The notes under the pieces are model-generated. The model was not told the DNA's origin, ran no database searches, and saw nothing but the letters and a program-made list of their open reading frames with translations. Positions 13,497 to 44,354 of a stretch of 60,000 nucleotides of DNA are shown here, in pieces. The position numbers and the translations under genes are program-made. The stretch covers positions 130,410-190,409 of the forward strand of contig JBBDJR010000006.1 of NCBI GenBank assembly GCA_040879785.1, written 5' to 3'. This DNA is from Candidatus Pacearchaeota archaeon. Lineage in GTDB: Archaea > Nanobdellota > Nanobdellia > Pacearchaeales > GW2011-AR1. Within the stretch, counting starts at the first letter, position 1, and the number at the start of each line of letters is the position of its first letter.

Positions 13497-13524
13497 GTTA
13501 TCACTAAAGAAAGGTCCAAAAGCT

Positions 13525-13536: not shown

Positions 13537-13552
13537 CTCTACTTTAATATTC

Positions 13553-15895: not shown

Positions 15896-15898
15896 TTT

Positions 15899-16672
15899 CT
15901 AAACACCCATCTTCTCCTCTGCAACTTCTTTAATCTTCTTTTGAATTTTACCCTTAAACTCCTTTCCAACTTCATCAAAGATTTCTAAAAGTTCCTCATA
16001 GGTTCCTTTCCCTCCTAAAAGCTCCCAGAACTTCTCTGCAACAAAGAGTTCATTTTCTTCATCTAAATAGCCCTGAATTGTAAATCTGCTATAAGGTTCT
16101 GGATGATAAGGATTATAAGGAATTGCTAAGATTGTATTTACTTTCTTTTTTCTGAGTGCAATCCATTCTAATAATTTCTGTTTTGATTTGACAAAAACAT
16201 CTATATTGGGTTTTGCTGTTTTTATCTCAATATAGTATTCCTCACCTCCTTTCCTTAAGAATAAATCCGCTCTGACCCTTATTTTTCTTCCGCCATTATT
16301 GTTGCATTCTAAAATTTCCTTTATTTCCTTTTCTTTATCGGATGTTCTCGTTCTGCTTTTTATTTCTTGGAGAATTTGAGAAATTATAGAATTTTCTTCG
16401 TTTGTAATTTCTCCTTCGACATCATGGCCTGTTCTAACTTCATCATAATGCGTTGAAGCTACAATTGCAGAAATTTTCTCATAAACAGACATTCCTAATG
16501 TCGTAGATAATGAATGTATGAATGAATAAGATGCTACCTTTTCAGAGTCTTGCATGAGCTTTACTAAAAAGGGCATAGAGGTTGTTTCCCTTACATATTT
16601 AGACAACTTATCATTTAGCTTTGTTCTTAACAGATTTTTGATTCTGTTTACCTGTTTATCAGTCAAGGTCAT
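15899..16672 (-). CDS. type II restriction endonuclease-like protein (PD-(D/E)XK; resembles TdeIII/MjaII-type enzymes from memory)
   Basis: SMPFLVKLMQDSEKVASYSFIHSLSTTLGMSVYEKI, followed by RADLFLRKGGEEYYIEIKTAKPNIDVFVKSKQKLLEW (D...EIK core). It lies adjacent to a DNA methyltransferase. Confidence 0.6.
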   Translation of the reverse strand: MTLTDKQVNRIKNLLRTKLNDKLSKYVRETTSMPFLVKLMQDSEKVASYSFIHSLSTTLGMSVYEKISAIVASTHYDEVRTGHDVEGEITNEENSIISQILQEIKSRTRTSDKEKEIKEILECNNNGGRKIRVRADLFLRKGGEEYYIEIKTAKPNIDVFVKSKQKLLEWIALRKKKVNTILAIPYNPYHPEPYSRFTIQGYLDEENELFVAEKFWELLGGKGTYEELLEIFDEVGKEFKGKIQKKIKEVAEEKMGV

Positions 16673-18172: not shown

Positions 18173-18245
18173 GGCTCCATAGCTCAGTTGGAAGAGCGCG
18201 TCTCTCATGAGGACGAGGTCCCGGGTTCGGTTCCCGGTGGAGCCA
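18173..18245 (+). tRNA. tRNA with CAU anticodon (elongator Met or Ile2)
   Basis: GGCTCCA/TGGAGCC acceptor, GCTC/GAGC D stem, CGTCT/GGACG anticodon stem, loop CTCATGA, CCGGG/CCCGG T stem. The T loop TTCGGTT has G instead of the usual A at position 58. It does not look like an initiator. Confidence 0.85.
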
Positions 18246-19083
18246 TTAATCTCTCAAACCTCAAATTGATGGGTTCTCTAATAGGTTTATGATTTGAGGA
18301 TGGAACTCCTTTAATAGATTGATTGTACTCCCGATCATAATTCATAAAGTCAAGAAACTTTTTATGGTGTTTCAGATTTACAAAACCTATTTCTTTCTCG
18401 AAAAGTAGTAGATTTTTCTTCCCATTAAACTGAAATCGGTATTGATCCTGAACAACATTCCACCTAGGATCTGGCCTTGACTTACAGAAATAGTGATTAC
18501 CACTCATCCCTAAACTCTGGAGATAATCATGAATCTCCTTGATTAACTGTTTGTGAATTGTTCTTGATTCAATTCTTGGGTAATATTTATTTGGATTTTT
18601 CGTTAGGACAAAACTCCCGTCAGTTGCAAAAAATCCTTGAACAACATGTTTTAATAAATTTTTCTCATAGAACAGTTTAGGTATTTTTAGATTAGCTCCT
18701 TTCTTTCCCACAGGGAAACCAGAAGAAGAAATCAAATCAAAAAGCTCGGCATCTATGAAATTAAATTCTATTGCATTACAATCTTTCCTAAACTTCAAGT
18801 TTGTATTTTTCTCTCTAAAGTAGACTAAAAGAGGGGAAACAATTTCTTGGAAGAAGGATATATCATCTATAGAAGATCCTGTTATTGCAATAAACTTCTT
18901 TTTACCATTAACCAAACTCAAGCAACCATCCCCCATTATTATTCCGCATAAAAGTGCAAATTTTTCTTCATCATTCATAGATTCTAAAGATAGGACCATT
19001 TTATTTTTTCCTAAGATATGTTTTAATAAATCCTTCAAGGACTTCCCATATATTTTTCCTTTCTTTTTTAACTTTAGAAACAA
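18205..19083 (-). CDS. LAGLIDADG homing endonuclease-like protein (double-motif, monomeric type)
   Basis: Two LAGLIDADG motifs are present: LLCGIIMGDGCL and VVQGFFATDGSF. The last ~13 codons (MAPPGTEPGTSSS) are antisense read-through of tRNA-CAU, so the real C-terminus is uncertain. Confidence 0.8.
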   Translation of the reverse strand: MFLKLKKKGKIYGKSLKDLLKHILGKNKMVLSLESMNDEEKFALLCGIIMGDGCLSLVNGKKKFIAITGSSIDDISFFQEIVSPLLVYFREKNTNLKFRKDCNAIEFNFIDAELFDLISSSGFPVGKKGANLKIPKLFYEKNLLKHVVQGFFATDGSFVLTKNPNKYYPRIESRTIHKQLIKEIHDYLQSLGMSGNHYFCKSRPDPRWNVVQDQYRFQFNGKKNLLLFEKEIGFVNLKHHKKFLDFMNYDREYNQSIKGVPSSNHKPIREPINLRFERLMAPPGTEPGTSSS

Positions 19084-19217
19084 AATCTATCCATAAATCT
19101 CTGTTTCCTCTAAAAGTAATTATTTCTTTCTCTTTCATAAATAATGTAATACAGTAATACTTATAAACCTTTCTTTTCTCTAGTACGAGGTCCCAGGTTC
19201 AAATCCTGGTGCAGCCA
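18246..19217. mobile_element. putative homing-endonuclease cassette lodged between tRNA-CAU and a decayed copy of its 3' half
   Basis: An intact tRNA, a ~940-nt insert carrying only the LAGLIDADG ORF, and then a 35-nt degenerate duplicate of tRNA positions ~39-73. Confidence 0.4.
19183..19217 (+). pseudogene. degenerate duplicate of the tRNA-CAU 3' half
   Basis: Compare GTACGAGGTCCCAGGTTCAAATCCTGGTGCAGCCA with the genuine GGACGAGGTCCCGGGTTCGGTTCCCGGTGGAGCCA. It would mispair in the acceptor (C5.C68) and the anticodon stem. No 5' half was found nearby. Confidence 0.7.
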
Positions 19218-19630: not shown

Positions 19631-19852
19631 CTACCTTCTTTTCTTTTTGGTAGCTTTTCGAGCAGTTTTCTTCTTAGCTGTTTTTTTAGCTGCTTTTTTA
19701 ACAGTCTTTTTCTTTGCAGTTTTCTTCTTGGCTGTCTTTTTCATAGCAGTTTTTCTCCTTGCTGTTGTTTTCTTAGCTGCTTTTTTCTTTGTAGCCTTTT
19801 TCTTTGTTGTTTTCTTCTTAGCTGTTTTTTTAGCTGCTTTTTTTCTCGGCAT
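19631..19852 (-). CDS. Lys/Ala/Thr-rich basic protein (histone H1/Hc1-tail-like)
   Basis: The 73 aa are almost entirely KKTAKKKT/KKAAKKT repeats. The DNA shows internal duplication. A TATA-like box lies upstream. Confidence 0.55.
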   Translation of the reverse strand: MPRKKAAKKTAKKKTTKKKATKKKAAKKTTARRKTAMKKTAKKKTAKKKTVKKAAKKTAKKKTARKATKKKRR

Positions 19853-19963
19853 TTTTACACCTCTCTTTTTAATTGTAAATACTAAGAACTAATTATTTAA
19901 AAAGTTTGTGTCTATCAAAAATTTTTGAAGAAAACAGTTTTTATGTTTTACCGACGACAAAAT

Positions 19964-21716: not shown

Positions 21717-23612
21717 TTATTTAGACTCTTCATCAGAATCTTTATCGTCTTCTTTCTTTTCCTTTTTAGGGGAAGAATCATCACCAGTACTCTTTGATTT
21801 TTTCCTTGCCTTCATAGAGAGTCTTATTCTCCTTGTAATAAAGAAAATTACTATCAACAGTAAAAAAGCGCCTGCAATAACAATAATCGCATTGGCACCT
21901 ATTCCTGTAAGACCCAGCTCGTCAAAGATTGCAAACCCTCCAATCGGCGCGCCAAGAACCAAACTTTCCCGGACAGAACTTGAATAAATCTCTGAGTTGT
22001 AACTAACTCTAAGATTCACCTCATCTTCCAAAGAACCGTTAACCACAATTATTTCTGCAGTAAACTCAGAGGATTCATTTGAATCAAGACTTCTATTTTC
22101 ACCTAGATTTGCCAATTGAGTTTCGTTTGAGTCTTCAAGCACAAAATCAATTTCAACATCCTGCGGTGTGCCCGAAAGCTCTTCTAAAGAATAAGTTACT
22201 CTAACCATATCGTCCTGCCTGGTTTTTCTTGCGTCAACAATCTCAAATCCAATCTTTTCTTTCTCTACCAAAACTGTAAAACTCTCAGAAACTGAATCTC
22301 CTGAAGAACACTCTACTGAAACACTTAAAGGATACTCTCCTTCCCCAGTATCTTCGGAAACACTCACAACAAAATTGAATGCTGCTTCTTCATCAGGGTC
22401 GATATTTTTCTGTCCCTCGTCAAAAGATATCCAGTCAGAATTCTCTCCGGAAGAAGAAAGTTCACAAGACATCATAAACGAGCTTCCGGTGTTTTCAACA
22501 TTTAATGAAACCTCTTCTAAAGAACCGGGCCTTATTCTTACCTCGCCGATGCTTTCCGCATTCAAAGGTCCTGATTGTGTCTGACTTTCAGATTCACTTG
22601 ATTCAAAAGACTCAGTTTCCTGACCTGCTTCACTACTTTCGCCTTCCTCATTTCCTGTCTCACCACCATCACCATCTGTATTTTCTTCAACCCTAACAAC
22701 TAACTCAAAACTTTCAGAAGAAGCACTGGAATAATTCTCATTTCCCGTTGTCTTGTAAACATAGGTGTAATTTCCTTCTTTTTCAAAATTAGAATTGTCA
22801 GGATTATCTACCGCTTCGCCGTCTCTATAAAGAGTACAATTCAACTGCCCCGGGCATCCCGTTCCTTCAACATCTCCCGTAGCATTCGGCTTAATCTGCG
22901 AAGTTCCAGTCAAACTCAGATCAGGCTCTGCCTCGGTAACATTTACACTAAACAATGTAGAATTTGTATTTTCTGAAGTATCATTTACTGAAACATTTAT
23001 TACATAATTAGTTCCTACGCTTAAAACAGAAGAATTTGTTAAAATTCCTGTTGAACTATTTATTTCAAAAGTATCTGTCCAATTAATAATAAAATAAGAA
23101 TCTAATCCAACATTATCCTCTGCATCAAAGTCTACAGACAAAGATTTTCCGTAACTTATTGAGGCATCTTCAGGGATTTTTTTAAATTTCGGAGCAATTA
23201 CATCTGGAGTTGTTGTTAAAGTAAAAATTTTCGTAGCACTTGAATTAGAGCTATTATCTGTAAGGTACCACCTATAACCTATTACTGAACCCACCGTGTT
23301 ATTCAATGTCTTTGTTTCGTTTGCCCAGTCTGGTGTTGCCGTAAAGTTTTCTGCCGAATCATTTATCCATGTTCCTGTATTGTTTGTTGAGAAAATGTAT
23401 TGTCCGTTTGGATGTAAGTTTGCATTAGTAAAATTTTCCACATAATAAGAAAACGTTGCATTTTCTCCTGCAATATCATTTGAAGGTTCAAAAACAGCAA
23501 ATCCTGTAAAACTTACGCTAACAAAGTACGCCACAGCAAGAGCACCTAAAACCAAAATGCCTGCCGGGAGAAACTTTCCCACCTCTCTTTTTGCCATCAC
23601 AGAATCATACAT
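21717..23612 (-). CDS. cell-surface (S-layer-like) glycoprotein with N-terminal signal/anchor and C-terminal TM anchor
   Basis: N-terminal hydrophobic segment, dozens of N-x-S/T sequons, an acidic Ser/Glu-rich linker, a C-terminal TM helix (IIVIAGAFLLLIVIFFI) and a charged tail. Confidence 0.7.
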   Translation of the reverse strand: MYDSVMAKREVGKFLPAGILVLGALAVAYFVSVSFTGFAVFEPSNDIAGENATFSYYVENFTNANLHPNGQYIFSTNNTGTWINDSAENFTATPDWANETKTLNNTVGSVIGYRWYLTDNSSNSSATKIFTLTTTPDVIAPKFKKIPEDASISYGKSLSVDFDAEDNVGLDSYFIINWTDTFEINSSTGILTNSSVLSVGTNYVINVSVNDTSENTNSTLFSVNVTEAEPDLSLTGTSQIKPNATGDVEGTGCPGQLNCTLYRDGEAVDNPDNSNFEKEGNYTYVYKTTGNENYSSASSESFELVVRVEENTDGDGGETGNEEGESSEAGQETESFESSESESQTQSGPLNAESIGEVRIRPGSLEEVSLNVENTGSSFMMSCELSSSGENSDWISFDEGQKNIDPDEEAAFNFVVSVSEDTGEGEYPLSVSVECSSGDSVSESFTVLVEKEKIGFEIVDARKTRQDDMVRVTYSLEELSGTPQDVEIDFVLEDSNETQLANLGENRSLDSNESSEFTAEIIVVNGSLEDEVNLRVSYNSEIYSSSVRESLVLGAPIGGFAIFDELGLTGIGANAIIVIAGAFLLLIVIFFITRRIRLSMKARKKSKSTGDDSSPKKEKKEDDKDSDEESK

Positions 23613-23652: not shown

Positions 23653-24078
23653 TTACTCCCCAATAACTTTCACCAAAATACGTTTATTGCGTTTGCCGTC
23701 AAACTCTCCGTAAAAAATTGTCTCCCACGGACCAAAATCCAAATCTCCGTCGGTAATCGCAATCACAGACTCACGGCCCATTATCGTCCTCCATAAATGA
23801 GCATAGGCATTATCTTCTCCCGTCAAATTGTGCCTGTACTTTTCCAAATTATCAAGATTCATCGGAGCCAGTTTTTCAAGCCACTGCCTAAAATCATGAA
23901 GCAATCCAGATTCATTATCGTTAATAAAAACCGAAGCCGTTATATGCATCGGATTCACGAGAACAATTCCCTCTTTAACTCCAGACTCTCTGACAACATC
24001 CTCAACCTCAGAAGTTATATTCAAAAAATCAATCTTATTCTTTGTATTAACAGTTATGTATTTTGTGTGTGTTTTCAT
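23653..24078 (-). CDS. YjbQ/UPF0047-family protein (secondary thiamine-phosphate synthase-like)
   Basis: [35 protein letters not shown] and GEFDGKR motifs; 141 aa. Confidence 0.75.
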
Positions 24079-24386: not shown

Positions 24387-24965
24387 TTATTTAATAAAAT
24401 CTAGTATTTCAGGAATTTTCTCAACATCATCTTCCTTTGTAAAGTGTCCCTGCTTCTTCTTAATAATTATCTTTGCCCCAAGATTCTTTTTAAATTTCTC
24501 TGCTTCATCAAGATGGACTTCAGAATCATCGTCGGAGAATATGCCCATGAAATTATTACAATGATCTAATATTCTGGAAAAACCAATCTTTGTATTCATC
24601 CAGGGATGTGCAATTTTCATTTCTTCAGGACTCTGATTAATAAGATCAAAAAAGCCAGCTACAAAAACACATCCAGCAATTTTCTTATGTCTATGCAACT
24701 TTTCCAAGAACCTCATAATAGTCTGACATCCTATTGAGTGTCCTACAAAGTAAGTTTGCTCATCAATTTCATCAGAATCAATATTTTCTCTCAAAAACCC
24801 AACCCATTCCTCAATCTTAGGGTGGTCTGTATTAGGCATATCAAAAATAATAACATTAAACCCTTTATTCTCAAGCTCTTTTTTAAGCCATGGAAACCAG
24901 GGTTCACTTTCAGAACTTCCACCCCATCTGTGAATCAAATATACTTTTTTATTCTCTTTTTTCAT
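24387..24965 (-). CDS. alpha/beta serine hydrolase (YdeN/RBBP9-like)
   Basis: VYLIHRWGGSSESEPWFPWLKKELE and the nucleophile elbow FVGHSIGC; 192 aa. Confidence 0.75.
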   Translation of the reverse strand: MKKENKKVYLIHRWGGSSESEPWFPWLKKELENKGFNVIIFDMPNTDHPKIEEWVGFLRENIDSDEIDEQTYFVGHSIGCQTIMRFLEKLHRHKKIAGCVFVAGFFDLINQSPEEMKIAHPWMNTKIGFSRILDHCNNFMGIFSDDDSEVHLDEAEKFKKNLGAKIIIKKKQGHFTKEDDVEKIPEILDFIK

Positions 24966-24972
24966 TTTCTTA

Positions 24973-24992
24973 AGCGAGGAGTGGGGTTTGAA
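24973..24992 (-). pseudogene. tRNA-Cys-like 3' end fragment (T loop, T stem 3' strand and acceptor 3' strand)
   Basis: The minus strand reads TTCAAACCCCACTCCTCGCT, versus the genuine tRNA-Cys 3' end TTCGAATCCCACTCCTCGCT at 28763-28782. Confidence 0.7.
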
Positions 24993-25026
24993 TGAGAACC
25001 TCCTGCAGGTTCTTCACAACTCCAGC
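24990..25026 (-). repeat. 37-nt tRNA-trailer hairpin element, copy A
   Basis: The minus strand reads GCTGGAGTTGTGAAGAACCTGCAGGAGGTTCTCATTC, identical to 28795-28831 (plus strand). It contains the stem AGAACCT/AGGTTCT around GCAGG. Confidence 0.85.
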
Positions 25027-25041
25027 TTCCCGAATCCTTCA

Positions 25042-25182
25042 TGCGGGCGAAAGGATTCGAACCTTTGTAAGCACTAAGCTAACAGGTTTCTTCGAGGTCC
25101 GTTTGCGTTATTATTATGCTGATAATCTCTTGCAAATCTACTCGCCTAAGCCTGTCCCGTTTGACCACTCCGGCACGCCCGC
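25042..25182 (-). tRNA. tRNA-Leu (UAG) with ~57-nt intron at the canonical 37/38 position
   Basis: GCGGGCG/CGCCCGC acceptor, ACAGG/CCTGT anticodon stem, loop CTTAGG|intron|A, long variable arm (TAGCTTAGTGCTTAC), AAAGG-TTCGAAT-CCTTT T arm and discriminator A. Confidence 0.8.
25088..25144 (-). other. tRNA-Leu intron
   Basis: This sequence lies between anticodon-loop G37 and A38. The internal helix CGAG/CTCG flanks the junctions. The exact splice sites were not determined. Confidence 0.6.
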
Positions 25183-25247
25183 ATAGAAATAAAGAATTAT
25201 TTTAGTATAAAAAGATATTGATATGGGATAGGATTTAAGGATGGAAA

Positions 25248-25260
25248 GATATTTAAATTA
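25248..25260 (+). promoter_or_regulatory. TATA-box-like promoter of the small 2-TM gene
   Basis: GATATTTAAATTA lies ~20-30 nt upstream of the ATG at 25279. GGAAA-ATATTTAAAT is conserved with the paralog promoter at 38121-38137. Confidence 0.4.
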
Positions 25261-25278
25261 ATTTATATTGATAAGGAA

Positions 25279-25473
25279 ATGTCAAACAAATTAGCTGTTG
25301 TTGGTTCTGTTTTATATCTTTTGTTTGGTTTATACCTGATAAACGCTTCTTTTGTCTTTGTTCCAATGCCAAACTTTATTGAATCGATTGATAGTTGGAT
25401 TGTTTTAATAGCAGGAATATTGGTTATTCTTGGTGGAGTAAATTATTTCAGGGCTAACAAGAATCCTTATTGA
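25279..25473 (+). CDS. small 2-TM membrane protein (paralog of 37894..38100)
   Basis: 64 aa. It aligns with the 68-aa protein at 37894-38100 (LYLLFGLYLIN...W IVLIAGILVILGGVNYF versus LYILFAIYFLN...W IIFIGGILLVFGGFSFF). Confidence 0.6.
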   Translation: MSNKLAVVGSVLYLLFGLYLINASFVFVPMPNFIESIDSWIVLIAGILVILGGVNYFRANKNPY

Positions 25474-25488
25474 TTTTGGAGAATTAAA

Positions 25489-25689
25489 GTGCTAAAGAAC
25501 AAAAAAAGAAAAATAAGAGAATTGTGGGTTGAGAGCGGATGGACTAGTTTTGCGTTGTTTGTTATATTTTTGGCGATTTATATTAGCAGGTTTATTAGAG
25601 ATCTAGAAGCGACAGGATACTTATACATTTCAATAGGTCTTTTTATAGCTTCGGTAATCCAGTTAGGAATGAAGTATAAGAAAAAATAA
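25489..25689 (+). CDS. small 2-TM membrane protein
   Basis: 66-aa ORF with a GTG start and two hydrophobic helices. Confidence 0.4.
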   Translation: MLKNKKRKIRELWVESGWTSFALFVIFLAIYISRFIRDLEATGYLYISIGLFIASVIQLGMKYKKK

Positions 25690-25713
25690 GATTAATTACA
25701 TTATGTAAGTATA

Positions 25714-26640
25714 TTACTTCTTCGCTTTGACTTCGGCTTCTTTCTGTTTTATTTTTTCTTCGAGGTCGAGTTTTTCTATAAGCTCTTTGTATCTGTTTCT
25801 TATTGTAACTTCTGTTATCCCTGCAATGTCTGCGACTTCTCTTTGAGTTTTTTTCTCGTCGTTTATTAATGCGGCAACGTAAAGTGCGGCGGCGGCGATT
25901 CCTGCAGGGCCTCTTCCCGATGTTAGCTCAACACCCTCTGCTTTTTTTAGAACTTTGAGCGCGTCGTTTTGAGCTTTTGGAGATAGTTTTAGAACTGAAG
26001 AGAATCTTGAGATGTAGTCTTTTGGGGAGCTTTGCGTGACTTTTATTCCGAGTTTTCTTATGATGAATCTGTATGTTCTTCCGATTTCTTTTCTTTCAAC
26101 GTCGGATGCTGTTGCCATTTCGTCAAGAGTTCGCGGGATGTTGTAGCTTCTGCAGGCGGCGTAAAGACATGCGGCAATTACAGATTCCATGCTTCTTCCT
26201 CTTACGAGACCTCTTTGGAGAACGAAGTTGTAAATTCTTGATGCCTCGTCTCTGACGACGTTTGGAAGGTTTAGGTAGGAAGCGATAACCCTTAGTTCAG
26301 CCATTGCGAGTCTTAGATTTCTTTCAATAGAAGTTGAAACTCTCTCCTGCCATTTTTTAAGTCTTAAGAATTTTCTTGTTTGTTTTGGGTCTAATCTATA
26401 AATATCGGAGATTTCACCGACGTTAGTTGTAAGCCCTTTGTCGAATTTTTGCATGCTTGAAGGCGCTCCGCCACGACCTTTTTTCTCCCCTTTATCGAAT
26501 TTTCCTTGTAAATCTACACCAGAATCAACCATTTTTTCTTCTACAACAAGACCACAATCATTACAAATTATTTCTCCGAGGTGAGGATCATAAGTAAGAT
26601 TTATACTTTCACATTCAGGACATTTTTTTATAGAGGTCAT
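25714..26640 (-). CDS. tfb: transcription initiation factor IIB (TFB)
   Basis: Zn ribbon CPECES...CNDCG, B-reader/linker, and two cyclin-fold repeats (SRIYNFVLQRGLVRGRS, AAALYVAALINDEKKTQREVADIAGITEVTIRNRYKEL). Confidence 0.95.
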   Translation of the reverse strand: MTSIKKCPECESINLTYDPHLGEIICNDCGLVVEEKMVDSGVDLQGKFDKGEKKGRGGAPSSMQKFDKGLTTNVGEISDIYRLDPKQTRKFLRLKKWQERVSTSIERNLRLAMAELRVIASYLNLPNVVRDEASRIYNFVLQRGLVRGRSMESVIAACLYAACRSYNIPRTLDEMATASDVERKEIGRTYRFIIRKLGIKVTQSSPKDYISRFSSVLKLSPKAQNDALKVLKKAEGVELTSGRGPAGIAAAALYVAALINDEKKTQREVADIAGITEVTIRNRYKELIEKLDLEEKIKQKEAEVKAKK

Positions 26641-26702
26641 TTGAGTTGTTTTTTAGCCATTTTAAGACTAAAGAAATTTTGTTACTTCGAGGTTGGTAAA
26701 AA

Positions 26703-26755
26703 GGTTTATAAACCAACTTTGTACAGCGTTTATAAACTTTTCGTCATTTATAAAG
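26703..26755. promoter_or_regulatory. three TTTATAAA boxes upstream of tfb
   Basis: GGTTTATAAACC (26703-26714, a perfect 12-nt palindrome), GTTTATAAAC (26728-26737) and ATTTATAAAG (26746-26755), located 63-115 nt upstream of the tfb ATG. Confidence 0.4.
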
Positions 26756-26798
26756 CTTTCGGTTTTTATTCTCGGAGAGTATGGTTTCAGAACTAGGT

Positions 26799-27164
26799 TT
26801 ATTCGTTTTCAATAAGGATACCATTAACAACACTTTCCTGGCTTGGTCTGTTTGTGATTCTTACTTTTCCTTTATCTGTCTCAACGATTGTACCTTTTGT
26901 AAGTATGTTTTGTCTTGCAAGGAATCTATTTGACGGAGTTTCAATAACGTTTTTTATTTCAAGTTTTTGATTTTTGTCTTTTATTTTTACGTTAATAAAT
27001 TTTGATTTAAGCAAAGATGTTTTTATGTTTCCGCCCCGCACTCTGTATGTTTTTCTTTTGTCTTCTCCGAGTTTTGTTGTCCTTTTTTGTCCTTCTCTTT
27101 CGTAGAGCTTTTTACTTCTATGCTTTTTGTACTTTCCGCCCGTAGTCTTTATTCCTTTTCTCAT
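26799..27164 (-). CDS. rps8e: 30S ribosomal protein S8e
   Basis: MRKGIKTTGGKYKKHRSKKLYE..., GGNIKTSLL, and a C-terminal ITNRPSQESVVNGILIE. Confidence 0.9.
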   Translation of the reverse strand: MRKGIKTTGGKYKKHRSKKLYEREGQKRTTKLGEDKRKTYRVRGGNIKTSLLKSKFINVKIKDKNQKLEIKNVIETPSNRFLARQNILTKGTIVETDKGKVRITNRPSQESVVNGILIENE

Positions 27165-27318
27165 GTTAAAGATGAAAAGCTTTAATTTAAATAGGTTTCT
27201 GTTTGAAGATTTTTTGAAAATGAGGCAGATGTGTTCTTGTAAATGCAGAACCGAAGAATTTATAAATAAACCAATAGAATATTCTATATAAATATTCCAT
27301 AATTTGGAGTTTAATAAA

Positions 27319-27567
27319 ATGGTTAACGGAATTGAAAGACCTCTAGATCTTTTAAATAATTCGAAAGGAAAGGAAGTGCTTGTTCACTTGAAAGGCGATA
27401 AGCAGTTTGTAGGAACATTGTTAGCTTTTGACATTCATGTGAATCTTGTTCTTGATAATATAAAAGAAATGGAAGGTGGCGAAGTAAAAAGAAATCTTGG
27501 ACTTACATTTCTTAGAGGAGACACAATAATTTTCATTTCTCCTGCCTCTACTGCTTTGAAGAAGTAG
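27319..27567 (+). CDS. Sm-like archaeal protein (SmAP/LSm)
   Basis: Sm1 motif VLVHLKGDKQFVGTLLAFDIHVNLVLDN and Sm2 motif LRGDTIIFIS. The ATG at 27319 is preferred over the TTG at 27304. Confidence 0.85.
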   Translation: MVNGIERPLDLLNNSKGKEVLVHLKGDKQFVGTLLAFDIHVNLVLDNIKEMEGGEVKRNLGLTFLRGDTIIFISPASTALKK

Positions 27568-27613
27568 TTATAATTTTAGTTACTTTTATTAATTAGATTT
27601 TGCTTTATTATTT

Positions 27614-28516
27614 ATGGCAGAAAAAGTAAAAATACATTTTTTGGGAACAAGTGATTCTGTTCCGAGCGCTGGAAGAAACCATCCTTCAATCTGGCTGAGT
27701 TATGAGAGAGAGAATATTTTGATTGATTGTGGGGAAGGGACGCAGAGACAGATTCGGAAGGCGAGATTAAATCCGTGCAGGATAACAAGGATTTTGATTA
27801 CTCATTGGCACGCAGATCATATTTTAGGAATTCCAGGATTGTTGAAAACTCTGGGGATGAGCGGTTACAACAGAACTTTACATATTTATGGGCCACGAGG
27901 AACTAAGAGAAAATTGGAATCTTTGAGGGACTTGTTTGGAGTCAGAGAGGAATATCCCATTAAGGTAAAAGAGGTTTCAGGAAAATTCTTGGAGGAGGAT
28001 GATTTTTATATTGAATCTGAAGAGATGACTCACGGGACTCCTTGCAACGCGTATTCGTTTGTTTTAAAAGGCAAGACGAGAATCGACAAGAAAAAGATTG
28101 AGAAGTTTAAGATTCCGACGGGGCCTCATATGAAAAAACTGAAAGAAGGAAAAGATATAACTTACAAAGGGAAAAAATATTCCGCAAAGAATTTGACTTA
28201 CACAGAGGAAGGGAAGAGGGTTTCAATTGTTTTGGATACGGCTTTAAATGAGAGGATTGCGCCTTTTGTTAAAGAGTCTGATGTTTTTGTGTCAGAGTCT
28301 ACGTTTGATTCCGGGCATGAGGATAAAGCAAGAGAGTATAAACATCTCACCTCAGAGCAGGCAGCGCGAATTGCGAAGAAAGCGAAAGTTAAGAAGCTTT
28401 ATCTGATTCATGTCAGCCAGAGATTTTCAAAGAATTTTAAGGCTGTGCTGCAGGAAGCTAAAAAGGTTTTCAAGGAAACGAGCCTGCCTAAGGATTTGGA
28501 TTCTGTTGAGGTTTGA
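27614..28516 (+). CDS. rnz: ribonuclease Z (tRNA 3' endonuclease, metallo-beta-lactamase fold)
   Basis: FLGTSDSVPS, IDCGEGTQRQ, ITHWHADHILGIPGLL, and a C-terminal LIHVSQRF. Confidence 0.85.
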   Translation: MAEKVKIHFLGTSDSVPSAGRNHPSIWLSYERENILIDCGEGTQRQIRKARLNPCRITRILITHWHADHILGIPGLLKTLGMSGYNRTLHIYGPRGTKRKLESLRDLFGVREEYPIKVKEVSGKFLEEDDFYIESEEMTHGTPCNAYSFVLKGKTRIDKKKIEKFKIPTGPHMKKLKEGKDITYKGKKYSAKNLTYTEEGKRVSIVLDTALNERIAPFVKESDVFVSESTFDSGHEDKAREYKHLTSEQAARIAKKAKVKKLYLIHVSQRFSKNFKAVLQEAKKVFKETSLPKDLDSVEV

Positions 28517-28581
28517 TTAAATGATTTTAAGATAAACAAAACATTTTAAATACAATTTCTTCTTAGATTTTTAGCTTAGAT

Positions 28582-28634
28582 GCCCTTGTTTGGACAAGTC
28601 TGGACGAATAAAGGTGGGCGAGCGAAGCAAGTGA
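28582..28634 (+). repeat. GC-rich leader element upstream of tRNA-Arg that begins with a degenerate copy of the tRNA 5' end
   Basis: GCCCTTGTTTGGACAAGTCTGGACGAATAAAGGTGGGCGAGCGAAGCAAGTGA directly precedes GCCCCTGTAGCTC. It shares the TCTGGACGA and GCGA..GCA.GTGA motifs with the Val and Thr leaders. Confidence 0.55.
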
Positions 28635-28708
28635 GCCCCTGTAGCTCAGCTGGATAGAGCAACTGACTTCTAATCAGTAGGTCGCAGGTTCAAATCCTGT
28701 CGGGGGCA
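28635..28708 (+). tRNA. tRNA-Arg (UCU)
   Basis: GCCCCTG/CGGGGGC acceptor, GCTC/GAGC D stem, ACTGA-CTTCTAA-TCAGT anticodon arm, GCAGG-TTCAAAT-CCTGT T arm. Confidence 0.9.
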
Positions 28709-28711
28709 TTT

Positions 28712-28782
28712 GCGGGGATGGCGAAGTGGTTACGCGCTCGGCTGCAACCCGAGTAACGTGGGTTCGAATCCCACTCCTCGCT
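28712..28782 (+). tRNA. tRNA-Cys (GCA)
   Basis: GCGGGGA/TCCTCGC acceptor, CTCGG-CTGCAAC-CCGAG anticodon arm, GTGGG-TTCGAAT-CCCAC T arm, and discriminator U as expected for Cys. It lies 3 nt after tRNA-Arg. Confidence 0.9.
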
Positions 28783-28794
28783 TGGATTTGGGAC

Positions 28795-28831
28795 GCTGGA
28801 GTTGTGAAGAACCTGCAGGAGGTTCTCATTC
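28795..28831 (+). repeat. 37-nt tRNA-trailer hairpin element, copy B
   Basis: GCTGGAGTTGTGAAGAACCTGCAGGAGGTTCTCATTC is identical to copy A in inverted orientation. Confidence 0.85.
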
Positions 28832-28848
28832 GGGTCCTTTCGCCCGCA
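28829..28848 (+). pseudogene. tRNA-Leu-like 3' end fragment
   Basis: Compare TTCGGGTCCTTTCGCCCGCA (then TGAA) with the genuine tRNA-Leu 3' end TTCGAATCCTTTCGCCCGCA (then TGAA). Confidence 0.7.
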
Positions 28849-28852
28849 TGAA

Positions 28853-31800
28853 TTAACAAACCTCAGGGAACATCTCTTTAAGCTTATCTAAATTTTCAGT
28901 ACTACCCACATTTTCAACATATCTCGGATCGCCAATCAATCCAAGACTCCCATCATCTTTCTCGTAGGTACACTGAGAATTCCATCCGTTATAAGACCTT
29001 AAAGCTCTTTGCCATCCACGATAAGCCAAATTAATGAAATCACTTTCCCTAACAACAGAACCATGCCTCTCTTGACGATAACAACTATAAACTCTTTCAA
29101 AAGAATCATATTCATCGGCCAATAAATTCAACCCAACCTCCATATTTTTCTCTGCATCTGAAAGTTGGTCTATACATTCCTCGTGATTAGATGAAAGACC
29201 ATAGTCTCCACAATGCCCAACATCCTGTCCTGTGTCCTGTCTTGTAAATGCGGTATTAATCTGCATAACACCAAAACTCGCGCCTTCATCCCCAAGGATA
29301 ACCTCACTGGAATTTTCGTTACAATAAAGAGGGTCTTCTCCCTGATGTATCTGATTACAATGCTGAATCTCACTCTCATGATAAGCAACCGCCAAGGCCA
29401 AACACTCAAAAGAAGCTATTCTTCCTCCATTATCTTCACTCACTACACCATCACTCATAAAAGGAGGACTCCCTCTTTCCTGTTTTATATCCGAAGCAAT
29501 ATCTATGATTTTATATCCTATATCTTCTTGACATTCTTCCTTTGTTGTACAACCAAAACCTATCTCAGGTGGAGAAACCCTTGTATTATCGGGAGCGGCG
29601 GTCTCGAATCCCGGGGAAGAAAAATCAGAGTCATCTATATCAAACAGAGACCTTCCGCTACCAACATCTTCCTCATTTAAATTTAAATCAATTGAGAAAA
29701 TCACTGCGGCTCCTTCAAGAAAACCTCTGTCTCTTAATGACATAATAATATTCCTTGTCCCATCCTCAGCAATGGAGATTTCCGTTCGCCCAAATCCGGA
29801 CCCTACCAACCTGCTTTCAGGAATCTCTCCCGAGACAGGTGCCATAAGACTGATATCTTCAATAGCATACATCCACTCTCCTTCGTCCTCACTATACTCA
29901 AAATACAAATCATAATCGCCCTCAAAATCTCCCCCATCATATCTTCTCGCAACGCTAAACCTTCCTCTATGTGAAAACCCAACTTTTTCAGTGGATAATT
30001 TTGAGTTACGCAAAGTAATTCCCAAAAGAGGTATTCTTGACTTCTCATCATTTTGTTCAACCCTGTCTATTAAAAACTCAAGACCCTCGAGATAAGACTT
30101 TCCTTTTAGTCCAGACTCTGTAAACTCTCTGTTCTCAGACAAAAGATTTTCCGAAGGAAGAGTTATTCCTTCTGGAATCTCCACCCTTGTATTATCGGGA
30201 GCGGCGGTTTCAAAACCGGGATCGTCAAATTGTCCAGGCTCAATATCTTCAATTCGTGTAGGTACATCATCATCTTTAGGAGGAGTCCTATTAAGAGTAT
30301 AATCAATATGTCTAACATCAAACCACTCACCGCCTTCTCCAGGACTTTCTCCGTCCAAAGACCAGTACCAATTCCCATCTATGAAAGTATAATAGATATT
30401 CTGACCAAAAAAGAATCTCCCGTCGCCAAAGGCAAAAACAGGATAATCCACACCAAGAGATCTTAACTCCTCTTCTGTTGCAGGATTGGTCACTTCCAAA
30501 ATTTCATCAATACCATCTTCCCCATCATCATCTCCATCTGGATCAACACAAAGACTGTCCTCGCAAACTTTTCCATCAGGACAATCCTCATCTTCAGTAC
30601 AATCACCTTCATTCTCATCAAGAAGTTTCTGATAGGCAGCCACAGCAAGCTTCCTGTAGGCATCCCCTCTAACCAGAGTCAAAAATCCCTTCTCATAACT
30701 CAAGAAAACCTTCTCAATATTCTCATTTACTTTTTCAATCAAACTGACAGGGTTCCCTTTACTTTCCAAATCTTCAATCTCACCGACAACATCTCTAAAC
30801 TCATCATCACTTAAAGCCCCGGTCTCATTTCTCAAAACCTCAAGATAATCAACTGCGGAATCATTTAATGCCTTCTCTCTCAATCCTTCATGTTTCACCG
30901 TATTTTCAACACTTCTTCTATCAAGCCAGCAACCAATCTGAGGAGAATCACAATGTCCGACCCTGACCCATCTTGAATCTTCGGTTCCGGCCGCAGCGTC
31001 CGTCGCCGAGCCGGGATTGTCCGTCGCACAGATTCTTGTAATTCCTCTGTTATGAAGAGATGGATCAACGCCCTCACGAATACTAGGATTAATTATACTC
31101 TCTATATTAGTCGTCCCTGAAACACACTCTCTCTCAGAACTTATATCGGTCCTTGAAACCTGGTCTGAAATAAATCTATCTGAAAGGTAGTTCGGTGCAA
31201 AATCTGTCGTAACCTGGCCAAACCCACACTCTTCCTGACCATTCACTACAATACACAATTCATTAAATCCTGAAGGAGCCGTAAAATCACAAGGCTGATT
31301 TGGATTGGAACCACAAGTTGCAGAATCACCGGCAGGAATAAATCCTGTAGCAACCACTCTCCTCGAAGGAGTGTCCTGGTAAAATGATTCTCCTGTACTT
31401 CTAAGGTAAACCTGATAGTAAGCAGAAACATCCTCTCCCGCATAAATATGATAAAATGTCTTATAGTGGGAAGTCGGAGGAGTCGTAGCCGAGGTAAAAG
31501 GTATCTCATCAAACCTTCCATAGAATTGTGCAGGCACTCTTGGTTTTGTTATTGAATCAATAAGACTTCCGGTATCAGGTCCTGCAATCGAAACCCAGTT
31601 TTTACAAACCTCTGTTCCAACACCTTCCATTGACCTTACCCTAAATGCATTAGCAGAATTCACAGCATACTCTTGCGTAAAGAAATCCGCGGACTCTCCT
31701 GCTTTCTGCCACGCATCCCTTACATCCATATACTCTCCTCCTCCACGAGTAGTTTGCCCGCCAAGAACTTTTCCAAGAACCTCCGGAATCACCGCGTTCG

Positions 31801-34800
31801 CAACCGGAAGCGCCTGCCTCCAGAAGAAATCACACATATAAACAGAATGAAGCTGATCACAAATTCCTATCTGTTGTCCGGTCTCAAGGCTGTGCTCAAG
31901 ACACTGCTGATAATTATCCAATACACTCAAATATCCCTCAAGACCCGCATGAACTCCCGAAAGGCAAATCGGAACATAAACATCTCCGCCTGCCCACGCT
32001 GCGTTAGGATAACATAAAGCAATACTTCCAATCACTCCCGACTGTACAACATCTCTAACATGATAGTTTCCTCCAAGATTACACCTTGAACTCGGGCAAA
32101 CAACAGGGTCACAAATATTAAACATGATACTACACTCTTTCGCAGACATAAAGTCCTGACACTCTACATCCGGAACTCCCACAGCCGGCTCTCCAACATC
32201 AATTGTCTCTCCAAACAAACTGATTGAACTAAGTCCCGCACTATGCTTTCTTGAGGCTTGGGCAATCGCCTGGACAGCCCTGTCTGTAAGCAGAAATGCA
32301 TCATTCTCATCCAGTCCCGGGAAATTTGTGTAAGGCTGGCTCAAACCAGGATTCATCAAAACACAATCATCATCTCCAACCCCTGAGAAAAACTCTTCTC
32401 TTCCGTTTTCTCCGACGTTACACAAATAAAAACTCGAAACTCTTCCCGAATCTTCAAACGCCCTCACCTGTCCTCCTATAGGAAGACTCGATTTTATTGC
32501 TGCATACCAACCATCACCCAAACCCGGAGGAGCAGGGAAAGGAACAATCGCAGGCAATCCCGCATACTGCCCGGTTTCATAATACCTCAACTCACAATTT
32601 GAACACTCATTATCATAAGTTTCTTTTTCATAATAATTGAAAGAAAGTCCCAACGGATTTGGATGCTTAGGGTCATCTTTCGTGCCGTGCCTCTCTAAAG
32701 AGTTTCCCTCTCCGACGACATAAGTCTCCTGAATAACATCATTCTCATTCAAAACCAAAAGATATATTTGCCCGTCTGCCTCATTCTCAAAAAGCTGGAC
32801 GCTTTCATCATCATTAATTTGCGCTCCTGAAAATTTATCTTCAACCTGGCCAAAAGTCGTTCGCGTGGTAAACGGAATCTTAGTCAGCTTTTCCGTCGAG
32901 CCAATGATAGGATTAGAAAATCCCGTATCCTCAGAAATACTTCTCCTCTTAGAGTCTCTATTAGAATTAACATAAATATCTCCAAGAGCGGATTCGATAT
33001 CACCTCTCGCAACATCACTAACAACCGAATTATCAGAATTCAAAAGCCGTGCATTCAACTGCAAGTCTCTCGCCTGAGTCACATAAGTCGTCTCAGGAGT
33101 CATGTTCCCAATTATACTCGAAACAGGTACGTCCCGTCCTTCAATCTTTATCGTTTCAATACCTTCAAGATTTCCACTCAATTCATTTCTATAATCATCA
33201 TCAACAAGTTTCTCCATAAACGCCCCGGTGTCAACAACATCCTCTCCAAGGAAATGGCTCGTGGTAATCCCTTCCTGAATTTTTTTCATCTCTTCATTAT
33301 GTTTCTCCAACGCTTCCGCCACTTCATTCACAGCACTTTCTATCCTATCATTCTTATCAAGCAAGCAAGAATCCATTGACTCTCCCGTCCCGGCTATCTC
33401 ACTTTCACAAATCTCATAATAACCTCCCGGACCCCTCATAACTTTCTGCCTGGCAATTCCTTCTCCCTGCAAATTCGAGAAAAAGTTTTTCACAGTTAAA
33501 GCAGCACCAACACCAAGACATGCCTTATTTCCTAATTCAACTGCAGTTCCAAGCTTCTCATTTATATTCCTCCACCTTTCCAATTTTTCATCCAAAGAAT
33601 CAATTCTTTCTCTTGTTTTCTCCGGAGAAAGCTGTATCGCTCTTTTTTCAATCCCAATCCTAAACGGAAACTCTGCCTCTGTTTCCTGGAACCTCACCTT
33701 CGGCTGAACAGAAACTTTTGCAACTTCGTTTAAATTTGCCTGCTGTAACGAAAAGGTATATCCTCCTCTTGAATCAGGTAACCCTTCCCTTAATGTTATT
33801 CTTGTTACCTGGCCAACAAAAGCTCTCTCAACGCCTTCAACAAATCCCTCTCTGAGATTAGTCCTAATTCTAACAGAAATCTCTCCAGAAGAATCTCTGC
33901 TCATATCAACTAACTGGATAAATGCCCCACTTGTATGGTTCAAAACACGTACAGAATCTTTTCTCAAATGGATACCCTCCGTGCTTCCATCAGGCATCCT
34001 TACAGAAACCACCGCCCCGAAATCATCAAACGTCGGCTCTCTAACCCTGTCTAAAGAGATACTATAAGTTCTTCCCTTAACCAAAACACTTCCCATAGAA
34101 GACTCCGGACTCGCGAGCCGATGCTCCTCGACACAATCCTTAGGAGGATTTTCATTCATCGAATCAGGATAACTATCTTCAAACTCCTCACACAACTCAA
34201 CAACAGACCTTTTCTGACCTGTTCCTTCCTGAAGCTCTATCATCCCTCTCAACGCCCTCTCACCAAAAGTTGGCTCATTATCTAATTCCGGAGGATATCT
34301 ATCACCAGCAAAACCATCCAAAACATCATTATAATCCTCGACCGCATTTTCATAATTCTCTCTATCTTCATCGCCTAATTCAGACAGGTCCGCATCGACC
34401 GCGTCCGCAAAACCCTCAATAAAAGCTTCTTTTCCCTCCTCACTTCCACCACTAAAAATTAATCTAGATTCTTGAAAAGAGATACTTTCAAAAAATATTC
34501 CTGAAACAATATATTTGTATATTGCTTTTCCTTGCCCAATTAAAGTCCTTCCTAACGTAGCAAAGTTATCTATCCTAACACCTTCTTCACCCTTTGTCGC
34601 ATAAACTGTCGAAAGAAATGCGGAGATATCTCCATTAGGAGCCTCATTAAAGAAATCAGCAAAATCTTCCAATTCAGAATTACTTAATCTTTCCCTCGTT
34701 CCCGGAACTGCTGCAAGTCCCGCTACTAAATCTTCATTTGATCTTGTGTTACCTTTTGTCGTAACATAAGCAAGATACACTGTCTTTTCTCCTTCTGCCG

Positions 34801-38153: not shown

Positions 38154-38195
38154 GGTCCTGTGGTCTATGTCGGCCACGCCTGGACGATATCATAA
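38154..38195 (+). repeat. GC-rich leader element upstream of tRNA-Val starting with a copy of the tRNA 5' end
   Basis: GGTCCTGTGGTCTATGTCGGCCACGCCTGGACGATATCATAA. Its first 15 nt match the tRNA-Val start GGTCCCGTGGTCTAG at 14/15. It can fold as nested stems GTCC/GGAC and GTGG/CCAC. Confidence 0.6.
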
Positions 38196-44167: not shown

Positions 44168-44239
44168 GCCTGTGTAGCTCAGTGGTAGAGCGGCTGCCTT
44201 GTAAGCAGTAGGTCGGGGGTTCAACTCCCTCCACAGGCT
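44168..44239 (+). tRNA. tRNA-Thr (UGU)
   Basis: GCCTGTG/CACAGGC acceptor, GCTC/GAGC D stem, GCTGC-CTTGTAA-GCAGT anticodon arm, GGGGG-TTCAACT-CCCTC T arm. Confidence 0.9.
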
Positions 44240-44254
44240 TTGGGGAGTTGGGAA

Positions 44255-44291
44255 GCTGGAGGTGTGAGGAACCCGCAGGAGGTTCTCATTC
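44255..44291 (+). repeat. 37-nt tRNA-trailer hairpin element, copy C (3 substitutions)
   Basis: GCTGGAGGTGTGAGGAACCCGCAGGAGGTTCTCATTC matches 34/37 to copies A and B. One change (A to G) keeps the stem as a G.U pair. Confidence 0.8.
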
Positions 44292-44354
44292 AACTCCCTT
44301 GGCTGGACCACGCTTGGGCAGTCAAGAGTGAATCTCATAAACTCTCCACAGGCT
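44289..44354 (+). pseudogene. tRNA-Thr-like 3' end duplicate interrupted by a 44-nt insert
   Basis: Compare TTCAACTCCCT [TGGCTGGACCACGCTTGGGCAGTCAAGAGTGAATCTCATAAACT] CTCCACAGGCT with the genuine TTCAACTCCCTCCACAGGCT. Confidence 0.65.

Follow-up and report, generated by a model that had tools for sequence, protein, structure and literature searches.

A probable 3.8-kb inversion between 37-nt repeats downstream of tRNA genes in a Pacearchaeota-like DPANN archaeon

The window, the 60,000-nt stretch of archaeal DNA analyzed here, contains two exact copies of a 37-mer, GCTGGAGTTGTGAAGAACCTGCAGGAGGTTCTCATTC, in inverted orientation, and between them lies a block of tRNA and housekeeping genes (Table 1). 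One copy follows tRNA-Leu and the other follows tRNA-Cys. Each is separated from its tRNA by a short spacer and is followed by a fragment resembling a tRNA 3′ end, with only 49-52 nt between tRNA and fragment. A third copy, with three mismatches, follows tRNA-Thr (44255-44291, plus strand). The initial annotation had reported both the identity of the Leu and Cys copies and the three substitutions in the Thr copy, and exact matching agrees on both counts; in a shuffle control, 0/100 shuffles gave a match. The anticodon of tRNA-Leu is taken as UAG, matching relatives; ARAGORN in intron mode gives taa.

Table 1. Positions of tRNA genes, repeats, spacers and tRNA-end fragments in the window
Feature	Position	Strand	Evidence
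Orphan tRNA-Cys 3′ fragment (T-loop to discriminator), TTCAAACCCCACTCCTCGCT	24973..24992	-	Ungapped comparison with tRNA-Cys
37-mer copy A, core of conserved DPANN element, probable left inversion breakpoint	24990..25026	-	Exact match; part of inverted repeat I2
Probable inverted segment, 3768 bp: tRNA-Leu, two small membrane ORFs, tfb, rps8e, Sm/LSM, RNase Z, tRNA-Arg, tRNA-Cys	25027..28794	.	tblastn synteny, tRNA maps, Pfam
Leu spacer TGAAGGATTCGGGAA, antisense to tRNA-Leu T-loop/T-stem	25027..25041	-	AAGGATTCG, the reverse complement of tRNA-Leu CGAATCCTT
tRNA-Leu(UAG), 57-nt canonical intron	25042..25182	-	Rfam 45.9 bits; ARAGORN with introns
tRNA-Arg(UCU)	28635-28708	+	Rfam
tRNA-Cys(GCA)	28712-28782	+	Rfam
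Cys spacer TGGATTTGGGAC, antisense to TTCAAATCC-type Cys T-loop	28783..28794	+	Sequence; tRNA-Cys T-loop of L085 and L042
37-mer copy B, probable right inversion breakpoint	28795..28831	+	Exact match
Orphan tRNA-Leu 3′ fragment with TGAA trailer, TTCGGGTCCTTTCGCCCGCATGAA	28829..28852	+	Ungapped comparison with tRNA-Leu
Cognate Thr module: tRNA-Thr, spacer TTGGGGAGTTGGGAA, 37-mer copy C, fragment TTCAACTCCCT, ~45-nt second insert, CTCCACAGGCT	44168..44354	+	

The two fragments are exchanged between the loci. In a formal ungapped comparison with tRNAs, the fragment after tRNA-Leu matches tRNA-Cys at 18/20 positions, tRNA-Thr at 13/20 and tRNA-Leu at 11/20, and the fragment after tRNA-Cys matches tRNA-Leu plus its TGAA trailer at 22/24, the runner-up tRNA reaching 14/24. 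Each is the sole near match to its tRNA end across the 60 kb, and the proposal that each fragment lies closer to the non-adjacent tRNA is borne out. The T-loop of the orphan Cys fragment, TTCAAAC, is closer to the TTCAAAT of two relatives (loci L085 and L042) than to the TTCGAAT of the window tRNA-Cys. On the outer side, the Cys-like fragment remains joined to the hydrolase gene at 24387-24965, 7 nt ahead of its start codon, and the Leu-like fragment abuts the stop codon of a 2368-aa gene (28853-35959, minus strand).

The exchange is reciprocal outside the repeats, and the spacers are still cognate to the adjacent tRNA. These spacers are not arbitrary sequence: taking the reverse complement of each gives the T-loop and 3′ T-stem strand of the tRNA next to it. 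The Cys spacer pairs GGATTTG with CAAATCC, the T-loop version of the nearest relatives. At tRNA-Thr the fragment is cognate, as previously described, but it is not intact, being split into TTCAACTCCCT (44289-44299) and CTCCACAGGCT (44344-44354) by the second insert. An identical tRNA-Thr without any inserts is present in L087. Other cognate modules with the same core are found at tRNA-Arg(GCG) in L081 and tRNA-Val in L136.

Gene order in relatives identifies the segment that differs. The uninverted order occurs in the closest relatives, with RNase Z identities of 78% and 74%, and in about ten other Pace-/Woesearchaeota loci. It reads large gene(+), tRNA-Leu(-), g64(+), tfb(-), S8e(-), LSM(+), rnz(+), tRNA-Arg(+), tRNA-Cys(+), hydrolase(+), and covers loci L002, L003, L007, L008, L010, L011, L017, L030 and L042 by tblastn and tRNA maps. 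In the same nine loci, tRNA-Cys is followed on the plus strand by homologues of the window genes at 24387-24965, 23653-24078 and 21717-23612, and L085, the nearest relative with its RNase Z at 78% identity, carries rnz, tRNA-Arg, tRNA-Cys, hydrolase(+) and UPF0047(+). In the window, only 25027-28794 is reversed. Both flanks are opposite to the block g64-tfb-rps8e-Sm-rnz-tRNAArg-tRNACys and collinear with each other when set against the outgroups (at least nine spanning loci plus L085), which supports the 3.8-kb inversion originally suggested. L085 has an intact tRNA-Cys 3′ end 11 nt ahead of the hydrolase start, and its window counterpart is the orphan Cys-like fragment. In L042, the homologue of the 2368-aa gene is convergent with tRNA-Leu, with 38 nt between them.

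The swap is not common to related genomes. Neither the 37-mer at the Leu/Cys loci nor swapped fragments occur in the relatives examined, modules are absent from the tRNAs of L085, L087 and L042, and the modules at Thr, Arg(GCG) and Val are cognate. Among the relatives examined, none combined the uninverted order with cognate modules at Leu and Cys, so the state before the flip is one that we infer.

Taken on its gene order and repeat structure, the region 25027-28794 has very probably undergone a real, lineage-specific chromosomal inversion in this Pacearchaeota-like DPANN archaeon, by crossover between the 37-mers. Before the flip, tRNA-Leu and tRNA-Cys would have pointed apart, each with a “3′-end replacement module” composed of an intact tRNA, a spacer antisense to its own T-arm, a conserved GC-rich hairpin element of ~40 nt (the 37-mer) and the displaced original 3′ end. 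Because the tRNAs pointed in opposite directions, the two element copies would have formed inverted repeats 3.7 kb apart. A single reciprocal crossover within the 37-mer would flip everything between the copies, with tRNA and spacer traveling with the segment and the displaced fragment staying with the flank; the modules would thus have come first and the flip second. A crossover inside the 37-mer, as the initial annotation had it, is indicated because the spacers are cognate while the fragments are swapped, and because each orphan fragment occupies the position of its tRNA 3′ end in relatives. The Leu and Cys element copies also share a C-to-T change (GAACCTGC) that is present in 0/12 other copies. 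Host homologous recombination seems the most likely agent, and the data by themselves would fit site-specific recombination as well. At 37 nt, the repeat is a short substrate for homologous exchange. The flip looks neutral for expression: both ahead of the hydrolase gene and facing the large gene, it exchanges one tRNA 3′ end for another. An inversion is an ordinary type of event, and this one is unusually well documented in that orphan tRNA ends label the exchange site.

The inversion is seen in one assembly of the genome, and an assembler taking the wrong path through the 37-nt inverted repeat could have produced the same layout from a genome with cognate fragments and ancestral order. The exact repeat is just 37 nt, the flip changes no local junction k-mer of 37 nt or less, and there is one long assembly only. 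Independent Logan contigs of run SRR27977663 break 30 nt into the 37-mer, exactly at the repeat and as expected at k=31; they end inside the repeat and therefore give no confirmation of long-range linkage. However, common metagenome assemblers finish at k values (55-141) that exceed the length of the repeat, as single reads do too; the source contig measures 285 kb, and the flanks differ directly outside the 37-mer, so any read of at least 60 nt resolves the junction. Misassembly is unlikely as the source of the flip, with very little probability left to an artefactual order.

Two biological alternatives would produce the inversion by other routes. In a duplicative inversion, a single module, for example at tRNA-Leu, would undergo intramolecular replicative transposition or homing into the tRNA-Cys T-loop, making the inverted copy and the inversion together. 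Inverted copies bracketing an inverted segment are the classical product of intramolecular replicative transposition, which the layout fits; moreover, the element appears mobile-like, and the flanking copies are identical, with their private shared substitution. However, the cognate antisense spacers outside the 37-mer differ between the loci, and a simple element copy would not yield them; cognate modules at Thr, Arg and Val arise without inversion; and Pfam scans of 50/59 window ORFs find no transposase. This route is improbable. Still somewhat less credence goes to a programmed, enzyme-driven site-specific inversion in which a recombinase or integrase would recognize the hairpin core and flip the segment reversibly, in the manner of Int-pTN3 acting between tRNA sequences in Thermococcus or of invertase switches. 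A near-invariant core across DPANN lineages would suit a protein recognition site, and integrase-caused inversions bordered by tRNAs are documented (PMC5495485). Against this, a Pfam search of 50/59 non-overlapping window ORFs of at least 70 aa turned up neither a tyrosine or serine recombinase nor a transposase, and the core pattern is absent from viral contigs. Furthermore, the segment consists of housekeeping genes with their own promoters, and therefore nothing would be switched by the flip.

Readings of the modules as RNA features were also considered and set aside. A BHB intron or split tRNA is not supported, as the contiguous tRNAs are complete and score 46-75 bits alone in Rfam, the folds form a long helix with a one-sided bulge of ~12 nt rather than BHB geometry, the swapped fragments are unable to form T-stems with the upstream tRNA, and the window EndA is a short alpha-type form. 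RNA-level selection on a spacer:fragment helix is likewise rejected: outside a shared GGG:UUC, G.U-compatible changes outnumber A.C changes by ~6 to 3, which is not significant, and the spacer perfectly complements the upstream functional copy rather than the fragment. Fold z-scores of the modules are weak (-0.8 to -1.5). No match to a known RNA family was found: at the Rfam gathering threshold the window gave tRNA matches only, and eleven core-bearing loci (L081, L128, L129, L132-L139) gave none at permissive E-values.

The 37-mer is recognizable by alignment as the core of an almost invariant GC-rich element of ~40 nt, present in 10 further DPANN species genomes (GTDB) and in one further metagenomic organism. 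An initial GTDB pattern requiring TCTCATTC gave zero matches, and looser core patterns gave 2 and then 10 genomes. The alignment holds 14 copies from 12 organisms, with 26 invariant columns in the core. Three of the copies belong to the window; the other organisms are the metagenomic one represented by L081/L083 and the 10 GTDB species. The genomes belong to Pace-, Woese-, Nano- and Aenigmarchaeota and share only 35-70% identity between their proteins. A match in L082 falls within a GC-rich coding region and is attributed to chance.

The element occupies four kinds of context. It lies downstream of tRNAs whose 3′ ends have a cognate duplicate, at the end of a protein gene whose 3′ terminus exists in a second, synonymously diverged copy, in frame within a methyltransferase gene, and directly upstream of start codons. 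For example, the two gene-end copies in L137 and L139 differ only at synonymous or stop-preserving positions. The L129 methyltransferase carries a clean 60-nt in-frame insert with the core that is missing from L130 and 17 other homologues (present in 1/19). A 379-aa window ORF upstream of rpl44e was considered as a counterpart of this methyltransferase and is not that gene. L128 and L129 both have a 9-bp arm pairing, AACTTCCTG with CAGGAGGTT. Duplications flanking the element vary from 0-5 nt to 24 nt, and no transposase was found. Further copies of the window 5′ inserts, or of the second inserts of L010 and L129, were not found among the loci compared. These comparisons show the 37-mer to be an insertion element shared by several genomes. 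It is apparently undescribed, as neither the core sequence nor any description of tRNA-end duplications in DPANN was found in the literature searched. Three core patterns gave 0 matches in IMG/VR, which speaks against a virus or plasmid origin. Two further models, a MITE with fixed target-site duplication and a Campbell-type mini-circle integration, were rejected: they call for the same arms at every site or for a hybrid tRNA, and neither is seen.

A broader reading, which is plausible but tentative, is that the core marks undescribed mobile cassettes of ~45-60 nt across DPANN. Such cassettes would enter the last ~13-24 nt of tRNA or protein genes while supplying a donor gene end and a target-matched hairpin, and their copies could serve as recombination substrates that reshuffle tiny genomes. 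If the element is mobile, selfish DNA would have a new means of persisting in ultra-compact genomes while sparing single-copy tRNA genes, and the element would also give rise, in DPANN genomes, to rearrangements and to artefacts in the annotation of tRNA genes.

Inversions bordered by tRNAs have been described in Thermococcales (Cossu et al. 2017, PMC5495485). They span 70-140 kb and are produced by the SSV-type integrase of pTN3, which acts on tRNA or on stretches of identical sequence at least 104 bp long. In both cases the archaeal breakpoints lie at tRNA genes that face opposite ways and have links to mobile-element sequences, with recombination of short identical inverted sequences. However, the present segment is 3.8 kb, the recombining repeat is a 37-nt element that lies downstream of the tRNAs and is not itself tRNA sequence, and no integrase is found among the window ORFs scanned. 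Inversions between inverted IS, MITE or rRNA repeats share the identical inverted breakpoint repeats and a reciprocal exchange of flanks with no gain or loss of sequence, whereas the repeat here is unusually short and the displaced tRNA fragments provide a built-in footprint of the exchange. Rickettsia palindromic elements and prokaryotic MITEs measure 100-150 nt (reviewed in PMC10969869). Like these, the DPANN element is short, multi-copy, palindromic and GC-rich, resides in AT-rich reduced genomes and can be in frame, as in the L129 methyltransferase. Unlike them, it has a core of ~40-60 nt without a fixed-length target duplication or known autonomous partner, and it often comes with a second copy of the final 13-24 nt of the gene it has entered and with an antisense spacer specific to that target.

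Replacement of gene 3′ ends is known from prophages and islands (attL/attR at tRNA genes or icd) and from free-standing homing-endonuclease cassettes, such as that of Allomyces atp6. The modules resemble these in that the intact gene ends in a copy of its 3′ end on the element side, with the original end displaced downstream. As at attL/attR sites, the 3′ part of the tRNA is duplicated with the displaced copy distal, but no element body with an integrase lies between, and the insert, at ~50 nt, contains no ORF for an integrase or endonuclease. If the cassette reading is true, the element would parallel the gene-end replacement of homing endonucleases or prophages while lacking an ORF. The same layout recurs at two neighboring tRNAs in the window, where LAGLIDADG genes (18205-19083 and 52390-53337, by Pfam) form the inserts.

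A 3.8-kb segment of the window (25027-28794), and no more than that, is inverted relative to all relatives examined. The initial annotation had proposed such a flip from the repeats and tRNA fragments at the segment ends, and comparison of gene order now supports it. By its RNase Z, TFB, S8e and LSM proteins, the window groups with the Pacearchaeota/Woesearchaeota part of DPANN; the nearest sequence is Logan contig L085 (78% identity in RNase Z), followed by the Pacearchaeota MAG LejiaA_31_70 (L042/L087; 74%). Window proteins were compared by tblastn with 80 RNase Z loci, and tRNAs were mapped by intron-aware ARAGORN. Nine loci (L002, L003, L007, L008, L010, L011, L017, L030 and L042) share the order 2368-aa-protein homologue(+), tRNA-Leu(-), g64(+), tfb(-), S8e(-), LSM(+), rnz(+), tRNA-Arg(+), tRNA-Cys(+), and then homologues of the hydrolase (24387-24965), UPF0047 (23653-24078) and 631-aa genes, all on the plus strand. 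L085 likewise reads rnz, tRNA-Arg, tRNA-Cys, hydrolase(+), UPF0047(+). The central block of the window keeps the internal order of its relatives, with the hydrolase, UPF0047 and 631-aa genes to its left and the 2368-aa gene to its right, all on the minus strand.

The segment is bounded by the inverted 37-nt repeats reported initially, which are exact copies of each other (see table); shuffled window sequences gave zero matches to the 37-mer. In ungapped comparison with all seven window tRNAs, the fragment at locus A (the tRNA-Leu side) matches tRNA-Cys at 18/20 positions (runner-up 13/20, Leu 11/20), and that at locus B (the tRNA-Cys side) matches tRNA-Leu plus trailer at 22/24 (runner-up 14/24). 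Given these scores and the absence of the repeat from shuffles, the swap of Leu and Cys fragments is correct and far beyond chance. The third repeat copy, near tRNA-Thr, does carry the three substitutions originally counted; its fragment is cognate as claimed, yet it is split by a second insert of ~45 nt.

Features of the window and insertion contexts of the core in comparison loci (L numbers)
Feature	Position	Strand	Description
37-mer GCTGGAGTTGTGAAGAACCTGCAGGAGGTTCTCATTC	24990-25026	-	exact copy
37-mer GCTGGAGTTGTGAAGAACCTGCAGGAGGTTCTCATTC	28795-28831	+	exact copy
37-mer, third copy	44255-44291	+	three mismatches
Locus A		-	tRNA-Leu, spacer TGAAGGATTCGGGAA, 37-mer, AAACCCCACTCCTCGCT
tRNA-Leu	25042-25182	-	57-nt intron at canonical position (Rfam, ARAGORN)
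Locus B			tRNA-Arg and tRNA-Cys, spacer TGGATTTGGGAC, 37-mer, GGGTCCTTTCGCCCGCATGAA
tRNA-Met	18173-18245		followed by LAGLIDADG_3 ORF
LAGLIDADG_3 ORF, 292 aa	18205-19083	-	3' end overlaps tRNA-Met
Orphan tRNA 3' fragment GAGGTCCCAGGTTCAAATCCTGGTGCAGCCA	19188-19217		past the ORF of tRNA-Met
Second LAGLIDADG_3 ORF	52390-53337	-	ends 1 nt before tRNA-Gln (region 52317-53400)
tRNA-Val 5' duplication	38154-38195		GGTCCTGTGGTCTA and 28-nt insert ahead of tRNA
tRNA-Thr 5' duplication	44041-44167		two tandem 63-nt units ahead of tRNA, each ending GAGCCTGTGT
tRNA-Arg 5' duplication	28579-28634		GATGCCCTTGT and ~45 nt ahead of tRNA
L136			tRNA-Val, antisense spacer GGAATCGA, core, perfect cognate fragment
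L134			core antisense at tRNA-Ser 5' end; 13-nt duplication
L139, L137			core at protein-gene 3' end
L129			clean 60-nt in-frame insertion in RsmD/RrnaAD-like methyltransferase
L133, L135, L138			core ends in GGAGGTTCTCA(N)ATG where real ORFs begin
L128			core within rpl44e leader
L137, L138			degenerate tandem core copies

In L085 the tRNA-Cys 3' end precedes the ATG of the hydrolase gene by 11 nt, and in the window the Cys-like fragment precedes it by 7 nt. The large gene and tRNA-Leu converge 38 nt apart in L042, and the Leu-like fragment abuts the stop codon of the 2368-aa gene in the window. The T-loop of the Cys-like fragment (TTCAAAC) is also near that of L085 and L042 (TTCAAAT) and unlike that of the functional window tRNA-Cys (TTCGAAT). 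These ancestral positions and the T-loop like that of the relatives mark the orphan fragments as the original gene ends left in place and the tRNAs as the part that moved. The hydrolase gene begins just 7-11 nt past a tRNA 3' end or fragment (gap 24966-24972 in the window, 2088-2098 in L085). It lacks its own promoter and probably shares a transcript with the tRNA ahead of it; after inversion it would depend on the tRNA-Leu promoter rather than the tRNA-Arg/Cys promoter.

Each spacer is still cognate to the tRNA beside it (GGATTCG complements CGAATCC at Leu, GGATTTG complements CAAATCC at Cys). Since only the fragments were exchanged, the crossover is pinned between spacer and fragment, inside the 37-mer, in line with the recombination within the repeats first suggested. 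The simplest account has two steps. Modules (tRNA, antisense spacer, element, displaced 3' end) on sister element copies would have arisen at tRNA-Leu and tRNA-Cys; because these tRNAs are divergent, the copies would lie as inverted repeats, and a single reciprocal crossover within them would then invert the segment. A C-to-T change is found in both the Leu and the Cys copy and is private to them. Duplicative inversion in one step is conceivable but disfavored, since the identical 37-mers are flanked by spacers that differ from each other and are specific to their targets. Misassembly would also produce the arrangement, and linkage across the repeat rests on one long assembly (a 285-kb contig). 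Logan contigs of run SRR27977663 match the flanks and segment at 100% identity but, built with k=31, end 30 nt into the repeat, so they are uninformative on both linkage and polymorphism. Misassembly is nonetheless rated very improbable because 37 nt falls below both the read length and the final k that assemblers usually reach.

Homologous recombination by the host could in principle suffice for the crossover between element copies. Pfam detected no integrase, invertase or transposase among 50 of the 59 non-overlapping window ORFs of at least 70 aa; its matches there include two LAGLIDADG proteins, a TdeIII restriction-modification pair and a tRNA splicing endonuclease. The last of these, a short alpha-type enzyme of 172 aa, adjoins the TdeIII-type restriction endonuclease and an N6/N4 DNA methylase (12978-16672). 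The inversion adds an example to a kind of process already known, the nearest precedent being inversions between tRNA sequences driven by an integrase in Thermococcus (PMC5495485).

The 37-mer is neither genome-specific nor tRNA-specific. A metagenome scan found it after a tRNA-Arg(GCG), with a cognate fragment, in an organism whose element is 96% identical to that of the window but whose coding DNA is only 65-70% identical. Core patterns matched 10 species genomes in GTDB, every one of them DPANN (Woese-, Nano- and Aenigmarchaeota), and gave zero matches in IMG/VR. In the alignment the core reads GG(A/T)N GCTGGAG N TGTGA R GAACC Y GCAGGAGGTTC TCA with almost no variation; it folds into a GC hairpin of 5-6 bp that has a short lower stem, and it includes two GGAGGT motifs. 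No Rfam family matches the element in the window or the core-bearing loci scanned, and the core sequence does not occur in the literature searched. The 37-mer is probably a short, mobile, GC-rich palindromic element, and the repeat that mediated the flip appears to be an undescribed element of several DPANN lineages, worth study of its own. The best-known analogues are Rickettsia palindromic elements and MITEs; unlike these, it is accompanied by replacement of the end of the invaded gene, otherwise typical of integrating prophages and free-standing homing-endonuclease cassettes.

Insertion is not confined to tRNA genes. At L139 and L137 the last five codons and stop are followed by a short inverted repeat of these, the core and a second five-codon-plus-stop copy. 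All seven differences between gene-end copies are synonymous or stop-to-stop, which argues for both copies having evolved as coding sequence, each in a separate lineage. The L129 insertion is absent from 18 homologues and from homologous L130 DNA. Other homologues of this methyltransferase have different short in-frame inserts at several sites (FAKTKIFPLGQEGGINE-, CSGDFANTNHFLSGGRVGISERNRNIK- and ERFRGGEDGAEQAGSRVG-like, for example), which suggests that DPANN protein genes host several mini-insertion families. The second insert of L129 has termini TTCGC...GCGAA.

Duplication of tRNA ends is general in these genomes. Among 112 tRNAs called across a first set of loci, seven had a copy of their own 3' end within 200 nt and five of their own 5' end; wrong-flank controls gave no copies. 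After more loci were added (142 of 146 called tRNAs examined), an antisense T-loop spacer directly followed 6 of the 10 tRNAs with a 3' fragment versus 8 of the 132 without. Inserts in L002, L010, L015, L057, L093 and L107 have no relation to the 37-mer. Two further layouts were observed: tRNA-Leu, 4 nt and then, from position 38 onward, the 3' half of another, different tRNA-Leu (L008, 7300-7400), and, after tRNA-Thr, a tandem duplication of its last 12 nt plus a ~83-nt trailer (L107, 3207-3340).

All seven window tRNA genes carry such a duplication. The insert is a LAGLIDADG ORF at tRNA-Met and tRNA-Gln, the two ORFs being 25% identical. The tRNA-Met layout (18173-19217) resembles a homing-endonuclease cassette that replaces the gene end; the tRNA-Met found at the same promoter in L042 is quite different in sequence. 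Upstream of the ORF at tRNA-Gln are a TATA-like box and, in degenerate form, a 5' tRNA fragment, AGCCCCG[23 nt]TAGTTTAGTGGTCAAGCAATAGAC. Short 5' inserts occur at tRNA-Val, tRNA-Thr and tRNA-Arg; those of Arg and Thr are absent in L085 and L087, respectively, where the tRNA starts at the site of the 5'-most fragment. The Val leader, the first Thr unit and the second insert 3' of Thr (44300-44343) have a motif in common, CGGCC[AG]CGC[CT]TGGA. Elsewhere, long runs inside ORFs (5350-5500 and 19640-19870) have a degenerate 15-nt period (TTTTTCTT/AGC-rich) and probably encode lysine-rich low-complexity protein tails.
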